Positions 1-58,583 of a stretch of 64,000 bases of DNA are shown piece after piece. Where the stretch lies: IMG/VR virus record IMGVR_UViG_3300043399_000509. One strand, written 5' to 3'. The first letter of the stretch is position 1, and the number at the start of each line of letters is the position of its first letter. The translations under genes were made by a program, and so were the position numbers. The notes beneath the pieces were generated by a model. That model was not told the origin of the DNA and searched no databases. It saw nothing but the letters and a program-made list of their open reading frames with translations. The stretch is from a virus.

Positions 1-575
1 CTGTGGTGTTGGTATATAGTGCTGCCTGACCAACTGCTGTGTTATTGGTGCCTATGGTGTTGGAGAGCAGTGCTGCATAACCAACTGCTGTGTTATTGGT
101 GCCTGTGGTGTTGGTATATAGTGCTGCCTGACCAACTGCTGTGTTATTGGTGCCTATGGTGTTGGAGAGCAGTGCTGCATAACCAACTGCTGTGTTATTG
201 GTGCCTGTGGTGTTGGTATATAGTGCTGCATAACCAACTGCTGTGTTATTGGTGCCTGTGGTGTTGTTGGCTAGTACATTTGTGCCAACTGCTGTGTTAT
301 TGGTGCCTGTGGTGTTGGTATATAGTGCTGCCTGACCAACTGCTGTGTTATTGGTGCCTATGGTGTTGGAGAGCAGTGCTGCATAACCAACTGCTGTGTT
401 ATTGACGCCTGTGGTGTTGAAGTATAGTGCATTTAGACCAACTGCTGTGTTACGACCGCCTATGGTATTAAATCGTAGTGCTTGAAGACCAACTGCTGTG
501 TTTTCGGTGCCAGTGGTGTTAGCATTTAGTGCTGCATAACCAACTGCTGTGTTATTGACGCCAGTTGTATTACTA
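1..575 (-). repeat. 51-bp (17-aa) coding tandem repeat, about 11 copies
   Basis: ccaactgctgtgttattg core recurs every 51 nt. Confidence 0.95.
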
Positions 576-38432: not shown

Positions 38433-38624
38433 CTAATCTAACAAATCATCATTCAGGATTTGACACTGAACTTGATATCCAACTTGGACCCTGATTTGAT
38501 CCAAGACTTGATATCCAACTTGATCCAATACTTGAGACCTGACTTGAAACCCGACTTGATTCCAAACTTGTTCCTCGACTTCAAACCTGACTTGATATTT
38601 ATTTTGTTCTTCTACATTTTTCAT
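38433..38624 (-). CDS. QV-repeat mini-protein, outlying copy
   Basis: QVRFEVEEQVWNQVGFQVRSQVLDQV repeat. Confidence 0.7.
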   Translation of the reverse strand: MKNVEEQNKYQVRFEVEEQVWNQVGFQVRSQVLDQVGYQVLDQIRVQVGYQVQCQILNDDLLD

Positions 38625-47189: not shown

Positions 47190-47450
47190 TTATCGTCCCC
47201 TGTTATTTTCTAGGATAGCCTCAATAACATCTTTGTGTTGGTCTATTATATGGAAAGTGTAATCTTCCATTAGATACGCACAACATAATCCAATAATCAA
47301 AATATTTATGTCAGTGATTACTCCCAAGGCATAAAAAAGTGTGCCAATAACTCCAAGTATATACACGAAGTTTATTGTAAAGAATATTGTTGCCATTAGA
47401 TATATAATGGTTTTGCCATTTTCTTCAATGAACTTTTTCATTTTAGGCAA
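47190..47450 (-). CDS. Small membrane protein
   Basis: Two hydrophobic segments. Confidence 0.55.
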   Translation of the reverse strand: MPKMKKFIEENGKTIIYLMATIFFTINFVYILGVIGTLFYALGVITDINILIIGLCCAYLMEDYTFHIIDQHKDVIEAILENNRGR

Positions 47451-47688
47451 TCTCCAAATATACTCTTAGGTCTTCATATCCACCAATACGAATACCATCA
47501 AATCTAAAAATCTGTGGTACTGTTGGTTTGATATCTGGTCCTAATATAGCACAAAGGTCTTCCTTTGTAAAGTCCTCATTGAATATTTTTTCTACATATT
47601 GAATATGTAGGTTTTCAAGGATTGCCTTGGCTTTATCACACCAAGGGCAATCTGGTTTAGAGTATATTATCATTTTCATACTATTCAT
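47443..47688 (-). CDS. nrdC: Glutaredoxin
   Basis: CPWC, TVPQIF, IGGYED. Confidence 0.9.
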   Translation of the reverse strand: MNSMKMIIYSKPDCPWCDKAKAILENLHIQYVEKIFNEDFTKEDLCAILGPDIKPTVPQIFRFDGIRIGGYEDLRVYLEIA

Positions 47689-48578
47689 TCATTTGATCCC
47701 TAACTTCATCCCTAGCTTTATGGTAGACTTGATCCCTGACTTGATCCTCGACTTGAGACATGACTTGATCCAAGACTCGATCCCAGACTTGAATCCCAAC
47801 ACGATCCCAGGTTTGATTACAGAGTTGATCCCTGATTTGGTCCCATAATTGAAACCTGACTTGATCCCTGATTTGGTCCCATAATTGAAACCTGACTTGA
47901 TCCCAGACTTCACCTTCAACTTGGCTTTCAACTTGAAACCTGACTTGACCATCGGCTTCATTCCAGACTCGATCAAAGACTTGATCAAAAACTTTAGGTG
48001 CAACTTGATCTTTCATACTATTCATTTATTTGGTACCTGACTTGATTTCTGACACAATCATAGATTTGATCGTGGATTCGATTCCTAACTTGAATACTAA
48101 TTTCAGTATTGACTTGTTGATGGACCTGATCCCAGGCTTGATCACTAACTTTATCCCCAACTTGATCCCAGACTTGATTATAGACTTGAGTGTCTATTCG
48201 TTTTTTCATACTATTCATTTAGTTTCATCCCGAACTTGATCTTGGACTGGAACTAAGGCTTGAGGACATATTTGATTTCTCACTTGAACAGTGAGTTCCC
48301 AACCTTGATCCAAGACTCGATCCCAGACTTGAATCCCAACACGATCCCAGGTTTGATTACAGAGTTGATCCCTGACTTTGTGTTTCACACTATTCATTTA
48401 GTTGATCCTTCATTTGAGACCTAACTTGATCTCCAACTTGAACCCATACCTGATCATCAACTGGAGTCCAGATATATGTATCAACCTGAGACATTACACG
48501 AAGATAAACATGATCTCTGATTTGATCCTCAATCTCATTCCAGATGTCAGCATCAATTCGTCTATCCACACTATTCAT
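47681..48578 (-). repeat. QV-repeat mini-gene block A: 48390-48578, 48215-48397, 48018-48218, 47681-48025
   Basis: Four coupled ORFs, each starting MNS, with Q-V-X-Z periodicity. Confidence 0.85.
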
Positions 48579-48582
48579 TTTA

Positions 48583-49398
48583 TCAAACCTCAAAATAAGT
48601 ATCAGGGTTGAAGTGCGTTGCTATGCTTTCATACCCTTCATAACCACGAGCATTAGATACAAGTGTGGTTTCACCAATCTCAAACTTTGACTGAATGTGA
48701 GTATGACCAAACACCCAATACTTTACCTGTGGTCTATCCATAATGAACTCATCAAGGGCACTCGCATAACCAGCATCAAGGTGATTACCACCGTGATAAG
48801 GATTGATTCCTTTGTATGTGGGTGAATGATGTGTTACCACCACACAGTTCTTGTGCTTGTTTGCTTCCAGTTCTGTTGTTAGAAACTCCATTGTCTTTGT
48901 GTGCTTTTCATAGGCGTGCTTTGTAAAAAACCTATCCTTGCCGATTTCAATGTAATGAAAATCATTCATACCAGCACCAACAGCCCGATGTGCCAATGGA
49001 TCGTCTTTATTCATATCAGTCCATAGAGTGCCACCAAGCACAACTGTACTATCATCCAAATGATATGACGAATCATTCAGGTGAATTACACCCGGCAGAT
49101 ACTTCTCAATATACTCTGCTTCAAGGTTGATGTCAAACCCATATGACTCGTGGTTGCCAGTCACATAGAACACTCGCTTGAAGTTTTCACGGACGATATT
49201 GAAAAATGTTAGGGTGCGATCCCGTAGTTTTCTGTTCCGGGCATCAGTCATCCTTGGATTTAGTGCCCTCAACAAAGTGATGTCGCCAGCCAAAATGAGA
49301 TTGTCACCAGAGATTGCCATAAATCTTGGTGAAGCAAAAAATCTTGGTGAAGCAAACTCAATGTGTAGGTCAGACATATAATAGAACTTGTGTGTCAT
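48583..49398 (-). CDS. Calcineurin-like metallophosphoesterase
   Basis: SDLH, AGD, GNHE, THHSP, GHTH motifs; 18-bp tandem duplication at 49321-49356. Confidence 0.9.
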   Translation of the reverse strand: MTHKFYYMSDLHIEFASPRFFASPRFMAISGDNLILAGDITLLRALNPRMTDARNRKLRDRTLTFFNIVRENFKRVFYVTGNHESYGFDINLEAEYIEKYLPGVIHLNDSSYHLDDSTVVLGGTLWTDMNKDDPLAHRAVGAGMNDFHYIEIGKDRFFTKHAYEKHTKTMEFLTTELEANKHKNCVVVTHHSPTYKGINPYHGGNHLDAGYASALDEFIMDRPQVKYWVFGHTHIQSKFEIGETTLVSNARGYEGYESIATHFNPDTYFEV

Positions 49399-50302
49399 TT
49401 TGTTTCATCCCAGACTTGAATATAGACTTGATCATGGACTTGATCGCTGACTTGATCCCAGACTCGACCCATGATTTGATCCCTGACTTGTTCATGGACT
49501 TGATCACTGACTTGATTCCAGACTTGTTCATGGACTTGACGCCGGACTTGATCACTGACTTGTTTTTTCACACTATTCATTTAGTTGATCCCATACTTGA
49601 TTTCTAACTTGAGCCCAAACATGATCCCTGACTTGAACCTCGACTTGATCGCTGATTTGGTCCCAGATTTGATTTCTAATTTGTTCCCAGTCTTGAGACC
49701 AGACTTGATGATAAACACGAGAGGTTCTCAGTTCAGCCCAAGGTTGATCCCAGATATGTTGTTTCAAACTATTCATCTATTTGATCCCAACCTTGATCTC
49801 TAACTTGAAACCAAACCTGTTGATAAACTTGATTACTGGCTTGATTGCTGGTTTGAACCATAACTTGAATACAGACTTGAGATTTGATTTGTTCATAAAC
49901 GTGATCCCAAATCTTAGTTTTAGCTATCTGTCTCACACTATTCATTTCATTTCATCCCAGAGTTGATCATCCAATTGTTCCCAGAATAGAAACCTGACTT
50001 GAGCCCAAACATGATCCCTGACTTGATCAAGGGCTTGATCCCTGACTTGATTCCAGACTTGTTCATGGACTTGATCACTGACTTGAGACCAGACTTGTTT
50101 TTTCACACTATTCATCAATTTGATTCTCGACTTGAGTCCTGACTTGAGTCCTGACTTGAGCACAAACTTGTTTATCAACTTGGGTCCAGACTTGAAACCG
50201 GACTTGATCGTAGACTTGATTACTGACTTGATTATAGACTTGACTATCAACATTAGGCCAGACGTTACTTTTGACTTTGTATTTCACACTATTCATCATC
50301 AT
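49395..50302 (-). repeat. QV-repeat mini-gene block B: 50108-50302, 49942-50115, 49769-49945, 49573-49776, 49395-49580
   Basis: Five coupled MNS ORFs with Q-V-X-Z repeats. Confidence 0.85.
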
Positions 50303-50314
50303 ATCTCCATAATG

Positions 50315-50347
50315 AAGAAGGGGTCCAGTTAGACCAGACCCCCTTTA
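50315..50347 (-). terminator. Hairpin (weak terminator/attenuator) ahead of block B
   Basis: aagggggtctgg-tctaa-ctggacccctt with a short pyrimidine tail. Confidence 0.6.
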
Positions 50348-50351
50348 TGGT

Positions 50352-50690
50352 TTAGTCCTGCACTCGACGGAACCCCTCCGGGGTATACTCACGCTGACGC
50401 CGAACATGATAAGTTCCCTTATCAAACATAATAGGCTCGTGGGTATCGTAACTACGAAGGTGCTCAAGTGCCGTGGGATCATTCACAACGAGGAAGCAAT
50501 CCATAATGGAATCAGGCAGTGAATACATCTTCACCTTCTCTGCTTCCATAACATGGTTGTGACCCGTTTCTGAGTGAGTAACAATCAACTTACCATTTTC
50601 GGGCTTTACTTCCACAACATTTGCAGGAAGTGAGTCAACACGACGAATATACACATCGCCCTGAGCACAAGTATTTTTGAATGTTCGCAT
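50352..50690 (-). CDS. His-rich conserved protein, typical partner of DUF6745 genes
   Basis: QGDV, ETGHNH, EH...THEPI, GTYHVRRQREY...RRVQD. Confidence 0.75.
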   Translation of the reverse strand: MRTFKNTCAQGDVYIRRVDSLPANVVEVKPENGKLIVTHSETGHNHVMEAEKVKMYSLPDSIMDCFLVVNDPTALEHLRSYDTHEPIMFDKGTYHVRRQREYTPEGFRRVQD

Positions 50691-50723
50691 TGTATAGTCT
50701 CCTTTGGTTTTCCATTATGTCTT

Positions 50724-50752
50724 ATAGTAGCATACTATTTAGTGGAAGTCAA
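50724..50752 (-). promoter_or_regulatory. Early sigma70-type promoter
   Basis: TTGACT-17-TACTAT, extended TG. Confidence 0.75.
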
Positions 50753-50904
50753 GTATAAAGTTTCATATAGTTCATTCAAACTTTGAACCCTAACATTATA
50801 AACAAGTTGTGCTGTATCTTCTAACATCCAATGATCAAATTTTGCTTCAATATCAACATGTTCATCAAATTCTGAATGAAATTTTGGAGTAAGATATACC
50901 TTAT

Positions 50905-52379
50905 TCAATCTTCCAGCCATCGTATATCTTCCTGTAGTTGAAATTCTACTGCGGAACGAACTTGTTCGCCCACCATTATATAGACAGGGCGTGGCACACC
51001 ACCACCTACTTGATCGGCAACTTCCTCACATACTACTTCTCCAAAAAAACCGTACAAAGTTGTATAAACCTTTTTTCTCACACTATTCATTGATTTGATC
51101 CCAAACTTCATCCCAGATTTGATCACCAACTTGATCATAGACTTGATCCCAGACATGAATAGTGACTCTATTCCCGATTTGATCCCAGACATGAAACCTG
51201 ACCTGATCCCTAACTTGAACCATGACTTGATCCCTAATTTGAACCTCGACCTGATACCTGACTTGATCATAGACTTGATCGAACACACTATTCATTGATT
51301 TGATTCCTGACTTGATGCCAGACTCGATGTACGATATGACCCCGGACATGATCACTGACCTGATTATCAACTTGAATACTGACTTGTTTCCAGAGTTGGT
51401 CTGTAACTTGAATCCAGTTTTCAGTTTGGATTTGTTCTCTCACACTATTCATGTAACTGATTCCAGATGTGATTTCTGACTTGATTATTGACTTGATCTC
51501 GGACTTGACCCTTGACTTGAGTCCTGACTTGATCATAAATTTGAATACAGGCTTGATGTCTGGTTTGATTCCAAACTTGAATATAAGGTTGCTCCCAAAC
51601 TTGACCTTTCACACTATTCATCAATTTGATTCCAAACTTTATCCCAAGCTTGATCCTCGACTTGATCATAAACTTGATCTTGGACTTGATATATAACTTG
51701 AATCTTAACTTGACTCCTAACTTGATTCTCGACTTTATCCCAGACTTGTTTACCAACTTGATTCTTGATTTGCATCTCAACTTGATCGTTGACTTGGCCG
51801 ACTGGAGTATATATTTGATTCCAAATTTGTTTTTTCACACTATTCATTTGATCTGATTCCATACTTCATCCCAAACTTGATTCCAGACTTGATTCTTGAC
51901 TTGATAACTGTTTTTATTTTCCCAACGCTGCATGATAACGGCTTGATCCCAAGCTTCATTACTTGTTTGATTTTTGACTTGATCCCTGACCTGAATATAG
52001 AGTTGAGACCCAATTTGTTTTGCCATACTATTCATCGATTTGTTCTTTGATTTGAACCATTGTTTTATGTCTAATTTGTTCCCAGAATGGATCACCAACT
52101 TTAATCCAGACTTGAGCCCTGACTTGAACCAAGATTTGATTCTCGACTTGATCCCAAACTTGATCGATGACTTGATACCTGACTTGATTTTTCACACTAT
52201 TCATCGATTTGATCCAAAATTTGAGCCGTAGTTTGATATCTGGCTTGTTCACAAAATTGATCACCGAATTGAGACCAGACTTGAGACCTGATTTGAATAC
52301 ATATTTCATGTCCGGTTTGATTGCAAACTTGAACAAAGATTTGATTCCAGATTTGTTTTCTCACACTATTCATAATCAT
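50905..52379 (-). repeat. QV-repeat mini-gene block C: 52197-52379, 52028-52204, 51844-52035, 51614-51847, 51445-51621, 51288-51452, 51083-51295, 50905-51090
   Basis: Eight consecutive coupled MNS ORFs; the last is degenerate. Confidence 0.85.
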
Positions 52380-52387
52380 ATCTCCAT

Positions 52388-52418
52388 AAAAGTAGAGGGG
52401 GTTTATGCCCCCTCTACC
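52388..52418 (-). terminator. Hairpin terminator ahead of block C
   Basis: gtagagggggc-ataa-accccctctac-tttt. Confidence 0.7.
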
Positions 52419-52431
52419 GGCACTCCCAAGA

Positions 52432-53304
52432 TTAGGTTCGGATTTCAGGTTTCAGGAAACTATCCTTATCAAACCCAAAAGTCCAAGCATTGGCATCCAG
52501 AGCAGTCTTCATATCAGGCGGAACAGGCAACGCAAACTCTCGACCCGTACCACACATAACACGCAGGAACTTCTCCTTACCAATCTCAGGAATTTCTACC
52601 TCAAGCAGTGTACCAATTTCAGGGTCTTCATCTTCATCAAGAACCTGAGCATCAAGGGCCTTGAGAATCTTGTTCCAACCAAGGATTTCACAGGCACAAC
52701 GACGCTGTTCAATGTTTTCCCAAGTTAGAGCAATCTCAGGATTCAACTTTTCCTTGTTCTCAATCCACTCGGCAGGAATGCGAGTACCGTGCCAAGCATA
52801 GACGCAGAAGCCATCACGGTAACGAATCGCTGGACCATCTTCACAGTGAAGTCGGTTCTGATCATCAAACTTGATGCGTTCTGGCCGATCCTGAAACACA
52901 ACCAGATCATCATAGACATTGAGCCAACCACAATGTTTGGCCAGTTCAATGAGACCATTCAACTTATTGCAGCATTCCAGACCGACCACATCACGGAAGT
53001 AGGCATAGAAGGCCAGCCAATAGGCATCGTGAGCACCATAAATCATTTCATTATAGATTTCACGCTTGGTTCGCTTTGGATCAATCTCCTGAATGATACG
53101 AATAGCATCCATAGGACCCTTGGCCGTGAGGAACTTTGTGGGTAGAGGCAAACCAACAAGTTCATATGCCATACACACAGCATCCTTGGCCTTTTCAAAA
53201 TCAACAGGTTCGGTGGATAGACCGATATCAATCCAAGTATCACGGTATTCACCAAACTTGGCCTTCTGTTCTTCAGTGAGTGCTTCAATCTTCTTAGTCG
53301 TCAT
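52432..53304 (-). CDS. DUF6745-like protein
   Basis: GAHDAYWLAFY, CGW, RLHCEDGPAIRYRDG..VYAWHG, NIEQRR, CGTGREFALPVPP. Confidence 0.8.
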   Translation of the reverse strand: MTTKKIEALTEEQKAKFGEYRDTWIDIGLSTEPVDFEKAKDAVCMAYELVGLPLPTKFLTAKGPMDAIRIIQEIDPKRTKREIYNEMIYGAHDAYWLAFYAYFRDVVGLECCNKLNGLIELAKHCGWLNVYDDLVVFQDRPERIKFDDQNRLHCEDGPAIRYRDGFCVYAWHGTRIPAEWIENKEKLNPEIALTWENIEQRRCACEILGWNKILKALDAQVLDEDEDPEIGTLLEVEIPEIGKEKFLRVMCGTGREFALPVPPDMKTALDANAWTFGFDKDSFLKPEIRT

Positions 53305-53339
53305 TGTATAAGTCCTCATTGGTTTCGCATTATGTTTCT

Positions 53340-53368
53340 ACTATAGCATAGGTAAAAAGGAAAGTCAA
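53340..53368 (-). promoter_or_regulatory. Early sigma70-type promoter
   Basis: TTGACT-17-TATAGT, extended TG. Confidence 0.8.
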
Positions 53369-53377
53369 GCGTGATTT

Positions 53378-53903
53378 TTAGTCATAGATTTCATCTACAA
53401 GTCTATCTACAATTTTGTCGTGAACTTCAAAAATTTTATTTTCCAGTGGGCGTTCAATATCTCTCCACACAATATTATTAATCTTTATATCCACTTGAGA
53501 TTCAATTTTAGATGCAACTTCAGCATGACCTTTATGATATATTTGTCTATCAACAGATTTCATTTGGTTTCATCCCAGATTTGATCTTGGGTCAATCCGT
53601 TAACTTGAATAGCCATTTGACCCCAGACTTGATTCTGGCATTCAGCCTGAACTTGAAATGTGGTTTGATATTCAGTTTGATCGGTGACTTGAACCATAGG
53701 TTCACTTCTGATTTGTTTTCTCACACTATTCATTTAGTTTCATCCCAGACTTGATTACTGACTTGAGTAATGGCTTGAGCCAAGTTTTGATCCCTGATTT
53801 GGTCCCATAATTGATCCCAGACTTGATCGCTGACTTTATCCCAAACTTGGTCACTGACTTGAATATAAACTTTATTCCAGATGTGTTTTCTCACACTATT
53901 CAT
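53378..53903 (-). repeat. QV-repeat mini-gene block D: 53730-53903, 53560-53733, 53378-53563 (degenerate)
   Basis: Coupled MNSV/MKSV ORFs, DETK* junctions. Confidence 0.8.
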
Positions 53904-54111
53904 TTTTGTATCCAACAACATCACAAATATCCTCAATAAGATCATAGGCATTTTCAATAACCCGATCACATTGGCCTATTGTTTCAGGGCAAGATATACG
54001 CTGATTCTCAATAAACTTTTCACAAACAACCCAAAGTTTTTTGAGCCGTTCTATATCAATCTCCTGATGTGCCATTCCATCCTCCGTCCTTATATACTTT
54101 ATTTCGCTCAC
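53896..54111 (-). CDS. Hypothetical protein
   Basis: ISCPETI.Q.DRVIENAY...VVGY motif. Confidence 0.6.
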   Translation of the reverse strand: MSEIKYIRTEDGMAHQEIDIERLKKLWVVCEKFIENQRISCPETIGQCDRVIENAYDLIEDICDVVGYKNE

Positions 54112-54253
54112 AGGAAATCTTCATTAGTTCGTCTGCCAGAGCATCCAAGGCATTACGAACACAAAGTTCCATCTCTGTTATTTTTTCTGGCTTCAAATCC
54201 ATCCTACCGACGACACGACGAATGGCAAGTTCAACTACTTCAAAATCATTCAT
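54056..54253 (-). CDS. Hypothetical protein
   Basis: Coupled to the preceding QV gene by ATGA overlap. Confidence 0.5.
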   Translation of the reverse strand: MNDFEVVELAIRRVVGRMDLKPEKITEMELCVRNALDALADELMKISCERNKVYKDGGWNGTSGD

Positions 54254-54435
54254 TTGGTTTCATCCAAAAGTTGGTTACTGACTTGATTTCTGATTTGAAC
54301 CCAGACTTGATCACAGACTTGAACCCAGACTTGATCCATAACTTGTTCATAGATTTGATTACTGGCTTGATTATAGACTTGATCACAGACTTGATCCCGG
54401 ACTTGATCACAGACTTGTTTGCTCAAACTATTCAT
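54250..54435 (-). CDS. QV-repeat mini-protein
   Basis: MNSLSKQVCDQVRDQVCDQVYNQ...DETK. Confidence 0.8.
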   Translation of the reverse strand: MNSLSKQVCDQVRDQVCDQVYNQASNQIYEQVMDQVWVQVCDQVWVQIRNQVSNQLLDETK

Positions 54436-57968: not shown

Positions 57969-58172
57969 TCACCCGAAAGCATTGTAGTAGGAACTCTCAT
58001 CTTCATATTGTGAATACTTGTGATCTATCACAAGTCGTCCAGTGATTTCTTCAATCTCGGTTTGAAAATCCACAACAGTCATACGAGAACAATCACAGAT
58101 AGGCAAAGCACCATATGCAAGACGATATGTTTCAAGGTAAAGAGCCATCCAAAGATCACGCTTGCTGTTCAT
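57969..58172 (-). CDS. Hypothetical protein with MNS start
   Basis: Coupled to the upstream QV gene by ATGA overlap. Confidence 0.5.
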   Translation of the reverse strand: MNSKRDLWMALYLETYRLAYGALPICDCSRMTVVDFQTEIEEITGRLVIDHKYSQYEDESSYYNAFG

Positions 58173-58529
58173 TTGATTTCCTCCCATACTTGAGCATAGA
58201 TTTGTCTCCAAACCTCATCATAAACCTCATCCACGATTTGAGACCTGACTTGATTATTGACTTGATTGTTGACTTGAGACCAGCCTTGAGCCCAGACTTG
58301 ATCCCTGACTTGTTCCATAACTTGGTCCCAGACTTGATTGCTCACACTATTCATTTTCAATATCCAGGTTATCATAGATTTGATCAAGTATCACACCGTG
58401 GAGATTATCATAGTCAATGGGTGATTCAAAGCACAAAGAAGTCCATAGATTAGCACTAACATATTTTATCAAATGATCAAATGTATCTTGTGTGGCTTTA
58501 TTAGAGACTTTACGATTCAGGCTTTTCAT
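58169..58529 (-). repeat. QV-repeat mini-gene block E: 58347-58529 (degenerate), 58169-58354
   Basis: MNSVSNQVWDQVMEQVRDQV; NE*/MNS junction. Confidence 0.75.
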
Positions 58530-58542
58530 ATCATCACCAAAA

Positions 58543-58583
58543 AAGAACAAAAGAGAGTGGGAATAATGACACTCCCACTCTCT
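58543..58583 (-). terminator. Intrinsic terminator ahead of block E
   Basis: agagagtggga...tcccactctct followed by T-rich tail. Confidence 0.75.

Follow-up and report, generated by a model that had tools for sequence, protein, structure and literature searches.

Free four-residue repeat mini-genes beside a repeat-less DUF6745 gene in a T4-like phage: candidate swappable subunits of one early complex

Introduction

Phage proteins with variable tetrapeptide repeats are of an already known kind. Mycobacteriophage Tweety gp54 (Che8 gp57, PMC gp51) carries a four-residue repeat, encoded by a 12-bp unit, with two fixed and two variable residues (PMC2884959). The third codon positions of Tweety gene 54 are invariant and its copy number is variable, and this pattern of fixed synonymous sites and variable residues was read as selection for variation (PMC2884959). 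According to two later reviews, changes in the repeat tune escape from two prophage defences (PMC9262239, PMC8549241); how the repeat tunes function remains obscure (PMC8549241). The earlier paper also describes variable region VR2 of Bordetella phage BMP-1 bbp36, a variable short tandem repeat with a 24-bp unit, located in cis in a non-essential gene (PMC2884959). Here, we describe 24 short genes (mini-genes) in a 64,000-nucleotide stretch of DNA from IMG/VR record IMGVR_UViG_3300043399_000509, analysed whole and called the window below, which is part of a 156,381-bp T4-like phage genome. Their products, the minis, are built from four-residue Q-V-X-Z units, and the array that they form encloses one gene of the already known family DUF6745 and one partner gene, GDV. 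It is, on a narrow balance, probable that the minis are the detached and multiplied repeat of DUF6745, acting as swappable subunits that would give one early complex many surfaces.

The minis share with Tweety gp54 the tetrapeptide pattern and the fixed synonymous sites. Tweety gp54 differs in its A-A-X-X alphabet, in being a single fused gene and in having no reported GDV-like partner, and it is tuned by mutation, whereas the minis would be a standing library. An alignment of the DUF6745 family showed no homology to the flanking domains of Tweety gp54 (hhalign probability 0.1%, E=0.7). VR2 of bbp36, compared by description only, is like the minis a variable short repeat, unlike them in its 24-bp unit and its position in cis. 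DUF6745 proteins with an internal tetrapeptide tract, for example prophiGD102-1 gp38, have the same insertion site and the same GDV neighbour, and three such fused proteins (L068, L085 and L066) contain the same units as the minis (QV-W/R/G-D/A). In contrast to these, the repeat in the window lies outside the protein, in 24 separate and more diverse genes with a conserved start of their own. Microcystis phage Ma-LMM01 gp174, whose neighbour is gp175, is a DUF6745 protein with a non-repetitive insert. A literature search for DUF6745, PF20530 or the repeat strings found no paper naming the family, and nothing was found on gp174/gp175; further searches yielded just Tweety papers and reviews on unrelated subjects.

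In the T-even IPI locus, variable phage genes encode small proteins that have a common N-terminal tag and act against host defence; these IPI proteins are packaged via a capsid-targeting sequence and are not repeats. IPI proteins and minis are alike in being small and variable with a shared start, but the mini start differs in being predicted to contact DUF6745. In Rhs/contact-dependent inhibition (CDI) orphans, pilS, vlsE and diversity-generating retroelements, stored variants lie near one conserved gene. Unlike the setting of the orphan or silent cassette arrays among them (Rhs/CDI orphans, pilS and vlsE), the window DUF6745 lacks a repeat with which cassettes could recombine, and the coupled starts of the minis make them look expressed rather than silent. 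Diversity-generating retroelements have a reverse transcriptase and a template/variable repeat pair and make adenine-specific changes, whereas variation in the minis is not confined to adenines.

Results and Discussion

About 270 loci with DUF6745 relatives fell into 145 clusters at 90% identity. Free minis were nearby in 0/63 of the fused clusters, in which the repeat lies inside DUF6745 at one site, and in 59/73 of the repeat-less clusters. In four complete genomes of the fused type, the repeat occurred only within DUF6745, with no free minis anywhere. The window DUF6745 (E=1.5e-35 and 122.8 bits against Pfam PF20530, gathering cut-off 27) has only 25 non-repetitive residues at the insertion site before its GxHDAxW motif, so that the window locus is of the split, not the fused, type. 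DUF6745 and GDV, overlooked inside the array by a first-pass annotation made from the sequence alone, are each single-copy in the genome, GDV lying 1.7 kb downstream of DUF6745. Overall, GDV was present in 124 of the 130 DUF6745 loci with enough flank, no more than 100 bp away in 106, and GDV-DUF6745 fusions (P0129 and an Atlas cluster) tie those two proteins together.

The split layout was found with QV, QL, AT, AV and RV alphabets, and the minis of repeat-less loci mostly share the repeat alphabet of their fused relatives. On the DUF6745 tree, AT minis were nested among AT-fused proteins (support 99), QL minis clustered with QL-fused proteins (support 97), and two QV split loci were sisters of QV-fused loci (support 95 and 96). 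The state changed between fused and split at least eight times, and a single clade of repeat-less DUF6745 was rejected (approximately unbiased test, p=0.00015). The nesting, on an unrooted tree, suggests fission as the direction of change. A profile of the minis searched against 1.84 billion representatives returned DUF6745 proteins with an internal repeat in 143 of the top 150 matches; 4,182 representatives matched the repeat profile, and DUF6745 relatives numbered at least 2,049 at 90% clustering. The first-pass annotation knew of no described system of this kind; given the repeat-bearing DUF6745 proteins, that statement holds only in part, although DUF6745 is itself uncharacterised. Comparison of the minis with the internal tract of L085 by hhalign gave 98.7%, a similarity of low complexity, and the weight is therefore carried by gene context; pattern matches with real arrays on longer contigs were mostly beside DUF6745/GDV. 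At the genomic level, these comparisons show DUF6745, GDV and the repeat to be one module, with the repeat either fused in DUF6745 or present as free minis.

All 24 mini-gene open reading frames (ORFs) lie on the minus strand, encode 54–114 residues and total 4,650 bp; 23 calls are clear and one (58347) is marginal. Twenty triplet shuffles gave 0–2 such ORFs, compared with 21 observed in the window, and no copy beyond the 24 was found in the whole 156-kb genome. Among 261 units, position 1 was Q in 88% and position 2 was V in 62% and V or I in 80%, while the entropy was 3.6 bits at X and 3.2 bits at Z. Steps from Q to Q spanned four residues in 165/227 cases and eight in 27/227. No two proteins were identical, pairwise identity having a median of 37% and a maximum of 63%. 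The first-pass annotation had thus correctly described about 24 paralogous genes in head-to-tail blocks of up to eight, 21 with MNS(V/M/L) starts and three others, covering about 4.5 kb, with near-fixed Gln-Val, two variable positions and no identical pair. Its upper length bound of 114 residues was right and its lower bound of 57 was not, the shortest protein having 54. Among the three copies it called degenerate, 53378 and 58347 are so and 38433 is regular with a variant start; with 50905 added, the truly degenerate minis are 50905, 53378 and 58347.

In-register stop codons were avoided: the window arrays had TAA 0 times compared with GAA 8 and AAA 4 times, and the pooled arrays had TAA at 2 of 2,154 sites and TAG/TGA at none, compared with 588 TGG. 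A single base change would turn either CAA or TGG into a stop codon. Synonymous Q and V codons were fixed genome by genome, and X/Z differed in amino acid; the fixed QV is not by itself proof of protein constraint, because DNA homogenisation accounts for part of it. Per 15 units, free arrays had 10.4 distinct XZ pairs and fused repeats 4.95 (uncorrected for kinship), and the window, with 13.2, is among the most diverse free arrays. The degenerate minis have lost Q and the DNA motif and kept a hydrophobic residue at every fourth position; in 53378, most Q are gone and the 4-periodic stripe is kept (p=0.0006). In the relative L098, the phosphoesterase DNA was approximately 96% identical, and the six flanking minis were 26–60% identical in protein and all open. 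Strains with the same DUF6745 varied in mini copy number and length, to which short-read assembly may contribute, and the 114-residue double-length mini has 72 identical bp in common with mini 48215; this exact share and the strain series point to recombination between units. Judged by these sequence patterns, the mini-genes are shown to code for protein and to be under selection, with recombination between 12-nt units reshuffling them. The avoided stop codons, the frames kept open in relatives and the varied X/Z residues support the earlier proposal of a maintained variant library.

AlphaFold2 models of DUF6745 and of GDV, the latter all-beta, had a predicted local distance difference test (pLDDT) value of 91.7 and 89.2, respectively. 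In a three-chain model with one of the 24 minis (49395–49580) and alignments that we built, the mini scored 0.87 in three runs, compared with 0.01 for the best of three controls; in calibration, the score mark was reached by 58/80 solved complexes and 2/110 mismatched pairs. The runs shared at least 94% of contacts. The pLDDT of the mini was 90 with DUF6745 and 46 once DUF6745 was replaced. All confident mini contacts were to DUF6745 residues 10–180, with none to GDV in this model, and the mini positions touching DUF6745 were Q in 14/14, V in 14/14, X in 10/14 and Z in 3/13. Mini residues 3–5 meet DUF6745 residues 135–136 in the model, which would explain the conserved mini start. According to the contact list, the mini would be a helix wrapped round the DUF6745 domain, and each mini is predicted, with fairly high probability, to fold onto the N-terminal domain of the one DUF6745 protein, which lacks the repeat, and so complete it in trans. 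Memory of a solved structure is unlikely because no solved relative was found. Fold searches of the PDB gave no clear match for DUF6745 (best Z 4.4) or GDV (best Z 3.4), which does not imply fold novelty; comparison of GDV with solved folds (cupin, deaminase or other metallo-fold) gave nothing that stands out, which does not exclude a fold. The match of the DUF6745 C-terminus to PARP1 WGR (Z=3.6, root-mean-square deviation 4.4, 73 aligned) was tied with many unrelated rows, and structure searches of viral proteins and the Atlas gave no matches outside the family. In split forms, DUF6745 residue 135 changes from Pro to Val/Met, in keeping with the predicted contact; the change holds mainly in one clade and was therefore not used.

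Considering these results, we propose the following mechanism. DUF6745, GDV and the repeat form one module, the repeat being fused or free, and the free minis are selected coding genes reshuffled between 12-nt units. Q and V of a mini would contact DUF6745, leaving X partly and Z mostly free. One scaffold and approximately 24 alternative minis would then yield approximately 24 complexes with different surfaces in early infection, and the DUF6745/GDV machine could thereby act on host or defence proteins that vary. The principle would be that of the tunable repeat in Tweety gp54, except that every setting is present simultaneously. If the minis bind, it is reasonably probable, by analogy with Tweety gp54, that their purpose is to present different surfaces to host or defence targets. 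Among the functions offered by the first-pass annotation, interchangeable specificity subunits are thus favoured, with the repeat-less DUF6745 in the array as the predicted partner that can now be named; its di-residue code, taken as a one-to-one readout, is a conjecture. More tentatively, and with a chance a little short of even, DUF6745 and GDV, as a conserved early machine completed in trans by exchangeable minis, may constitute a widespread undescribed diversification system in which each mini gives a different binding surface towards host or defence proteins, the split design having arisen several times from fused ancestors.

Several explanations compete with this mechanism. The minis may bind DUF6745 only as a structural cover, chaperone or antitoxin-like inhibitor, with the copies serving dosage and X/Z reflecting drift of an unstable minisatellite with a 12-nt unit. 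Of the predicted contact surface, 69% is hydrophobic; a promoter-like site precedes DUF6745 itself and the minis lie behind hairpins, so that many copies might balance it; and the common X codons TGG, AGG and GGG are one base apart; the varying mini copy number and length among strains with the same DUF6745 also fit. However, homogenisation combined with drift alone should erode both kinds of site, yet Q/V synonymous sites are near fixed while X/Z change; free arrays are about twice as diverse as fused repeats; and dosage would be satisfied by identical tandem copies, yet 0 of 24 are identical, which leaves this explanation rather unlikely. It is improbable to a greater degree that the minis form a variable coat under which a conserved DUF6745 surface escapes host immune sensors, diversity then serving evasion and not binding. 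Twenty-four coats at once would raise the chance of one being sensed, and W, R and Y, which are typically found on binding surfaces, are frequent at X, although the genomic and structural evidence is the same as for swappable subunits, the mostly contact-free Z positions would form the free face of a coat, and the minis turn over far faster than neighbouring genes.

The minis might also work independently of DUF6745, either as free decoys or by forming a homo- or hetero-polymer. There are 24 mini-genes to one scaffold gene, outlying minis lie 5 and 14 kb away, and the Atlas contains clusters of such small proteins, but free minis were never beside a fused DUF6745, real arrays on longer contigs were mostly beside DUF6745/GDV, and the drop in mini confidence on replacement of DUF6745 makes the decoys or co-polymer of the first-pass annotation less likely; we regard independent action as very unlikely. 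We would give least credence of all to DNA or RNA as the functional unit, such as a GATC-rich sponge, a recombination motif or a selfish minisatellite, with frames open only for coupling. Other arrays are nearly without GATC (0.3 per kb in L064 and 0 in AT arrays), whereas its density was 13.3 per kb in the window array compared with 3.4 per kb in the genome. CAA made up 96% of Q codons in minis, and Val was mostly encoded by GTC in QV arrays, even in phages of 35–40% GC (51% of Val codons in the window minis compared with 9% in neighbouring genes). GTC reads as the Asp codon GAC on the complementary strand, so that the units are quasi-palindromic, and the last TGG-GAT unit of a mini doubles as the GGGA site ahead of the next start. 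The GATC density, the codon bias and the GGGA site would suit a nucleic acid function, but DNA motifs vary by lineage while the protein pattern persists, the degenerate copies drop the motif and keep the hydrophobic period, no excess mRNA folding was found in the arrays (mean z=0.1), and the repeat is translated in frame inside DUF6745 elsewhere.

Other points weigh against swappable subunits themselves. Only three independent fused/split pairs stood on strongly supported branches; none was contrary (sign test, p=0.25), and the Fisher value of 2e-25 for mutual exclusion therefore overstates the case. Fourteen repeat-less clusters had no minis in view; of four such records checked, three were 10–20% complete and one 73% complete. 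Conservation was no higher at the DUF6745 contact residues than elsewhere in the protein (p=0.23). When a known fused family is split, its halves tend to pass complex models, so the score may reflect split-gene likeness, the model having probably seen fused sequences, and a three-chain model with its own alignments lies outside the calibration. The high X/Z diversity could reflect relaxed selection. Since Tweety gp54 is not homologous, the defence role is argued from analogy.

If the minis are swappable subunits, phages can keep many binding specificities in stock at once with neither retroelements nor shufflons, and one virus may make many variants of a complex by combining a single scaffold with numerous small exchangeable parts. 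In the split form, a repeat that was opaque is laid out as separate 60-residue genes, each testable individually with one scaffold, and this form would offer a tractable model for how four-residue repeats tune function in a large and uncharacterised family. New here are the count behind the mutual exclusion, the test on the tree together with the matching alphabets, and the complex model with its controls.

Features of the locus

The mini-genes form blocks of 1, 3, 8, 5 and 4 within 47681–54435, with two more at 58169–58529 and one at 38433 (Table 1). The exceptions to the MNS(V/L/M) start are 38433 (MKNV), 53378 (MKSV) and 58347 (MKSL). Adjacent minis overlap by 4 or 8 nt at ATGA or ATGAATAG junctions. 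A profile without the degenerate copies recovered 23 minis at E below 1e-6; the marginal 58347 gave E=0.41 with this profile and a lag-4 hydrophobic signal of p=0.014. A 2,429-bp part of the array is identical in another public assembly, possibly from the same sample.

Table 1 Coordinates of the array genes and associated features in the window
Feature	Position	Strand	Evidence
DUF6745 gene without internal repeat, 290 aa from likely start 53304; ORF reaches 53319	52432..53304	minus	PF20530, phrog_31813
GDV partner gene, 112 aa, His-rich, all-beta	50352..50690	minus	phrog_27831
Metallophosphoesterase gene within array	48583..49398	minus	PF00149
QVXZ mini-gene, 61 aa	54250..54435	minus	ORF and profile
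Block of 3 minis (53730, 53560, degenerate 53378), upstream of DUF6745	53378..53903	minus	ORFs and profile
Block of 8 coupled minis, downstream of DUF6745, ending in degenerate 50905	50905..52373	minus	ORFs and profile
Block of 5 coupled minis, downstream of GDV; includes the mini of the complex model (49395-49580)	49395..50296	minus	
Block of 4 minis, including the 114-aa double-length one	47681..48578	minus	ORFs
Outlying pair: clear mini 58169-58354 and marginal 58347-58529	58169..58529	minus	
Outlying mini, 63 aa	38433..38624	minus	E=1.3e-14
Extended -10 sigma70-type promoter-like site before DUF6745	53340..53368	minus	consensus match only
Similar promoter-like site before GDV	50724..50752	minus	consensus match only
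Hairpin then GGAGA ribosome-binding site, between DUF6745 and 8-gene block	52390..52417	minus	z=-2.85
Hairpin then GGAGA, between GDV and 5-gene block	50318..50344	minus	z=-3.53
Hairpin before outlying pair	58552..58583	minus	z=-4.7

DUF6745 and GDV have a common layout of promoter-like site, gene, hairpin, GGAGA and mini block; sigma70-type promoter-like matches were no commoner in the sequence than in shuffles. At most internal minis, the start overlaps the previous stop and GGA or GGGA comes from the last unit of the previous gene. The minis may be produced at a lower level via read-through. In the family alignment, GDV has the conserved motifs QGD, HSETGHxH, HxRxxDTH and RRQREY, which may form a metal site. 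The metallophosphoesterase was rejected as a core part of the module, close homologues being present in only six locus clusters; its gene has an 18-nt tandem duplication near the start (49326–49370) that is absent from L098. NCBIfam and PADLOC searches gave nothing above cut-off, and matches to GvpQ, Cas2 and FliH were dismissed as compositional.

Three neighbouring ORFs were rejected as minis. The 57-residue ORF 50735–50908, a candidate 25th mini, has no detectable similarity to minis; it has a TTG start, is coupled to the last mini of the 8-gene block and is mini-like in size and position. The glutaredoxin gene 47443–47688 and the unrelated ORF 57969–58172 have only the junction in common with minis, opening with the same MNS junction, and the overlap sequence there may be a recombination point for inserting other genes. 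A stand-alone N-terminal NAD-binding domain of DNA ligase (PF22745, 54428–54703) is coupled directly to the first mini.

Among the relatives, GDV and part of the mini array are opposite in strand to DUF6745 in the closest one (L007:1836-3808). Long non-repetitive inserts, some with traces of the period, occupy the same site of DUF6745 in L104, L111, L116, L195, L004, P0125 and P0127, and are possibly old, eroded repeats. GDV-DUF6745 fusions occur at L016:5734-6852, P0129 and P0288; that in P0129 looks natural, with eroded His motifs, and those in L016 and P0288 may be deletions or assembly errors. Proteins in which GDV appears joined to an HNH domain seem to be artefacts of start codons wrongly called in upstream genes. 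Separate Tweety gp54-like A-A-x-x repeat genes lie a few kb from a fused DUF6745 at L107:1270-1647 and L109:5401-5916, and QV-type repeats occur in non-DUF6745 proteins with apparent signal peptides in P0264 and P0270.

The RNase H of this phage is only approximately 52–54% identical to that of cultured cyanophages and Methylophilales phages, so no close cultured relative was found. At window positions 1–400, where the contig ends, a probable tail-fibre gene contains tandem repeats of 102 bp, and these probably account for the overlap of the contig with itself. A 29-codon ORF for a PqqA-like peptide that lies outside the window, at approximately 75917 on the plus strand of the phage genome (G000), may hint at a PQQ-using proteobacterial host.

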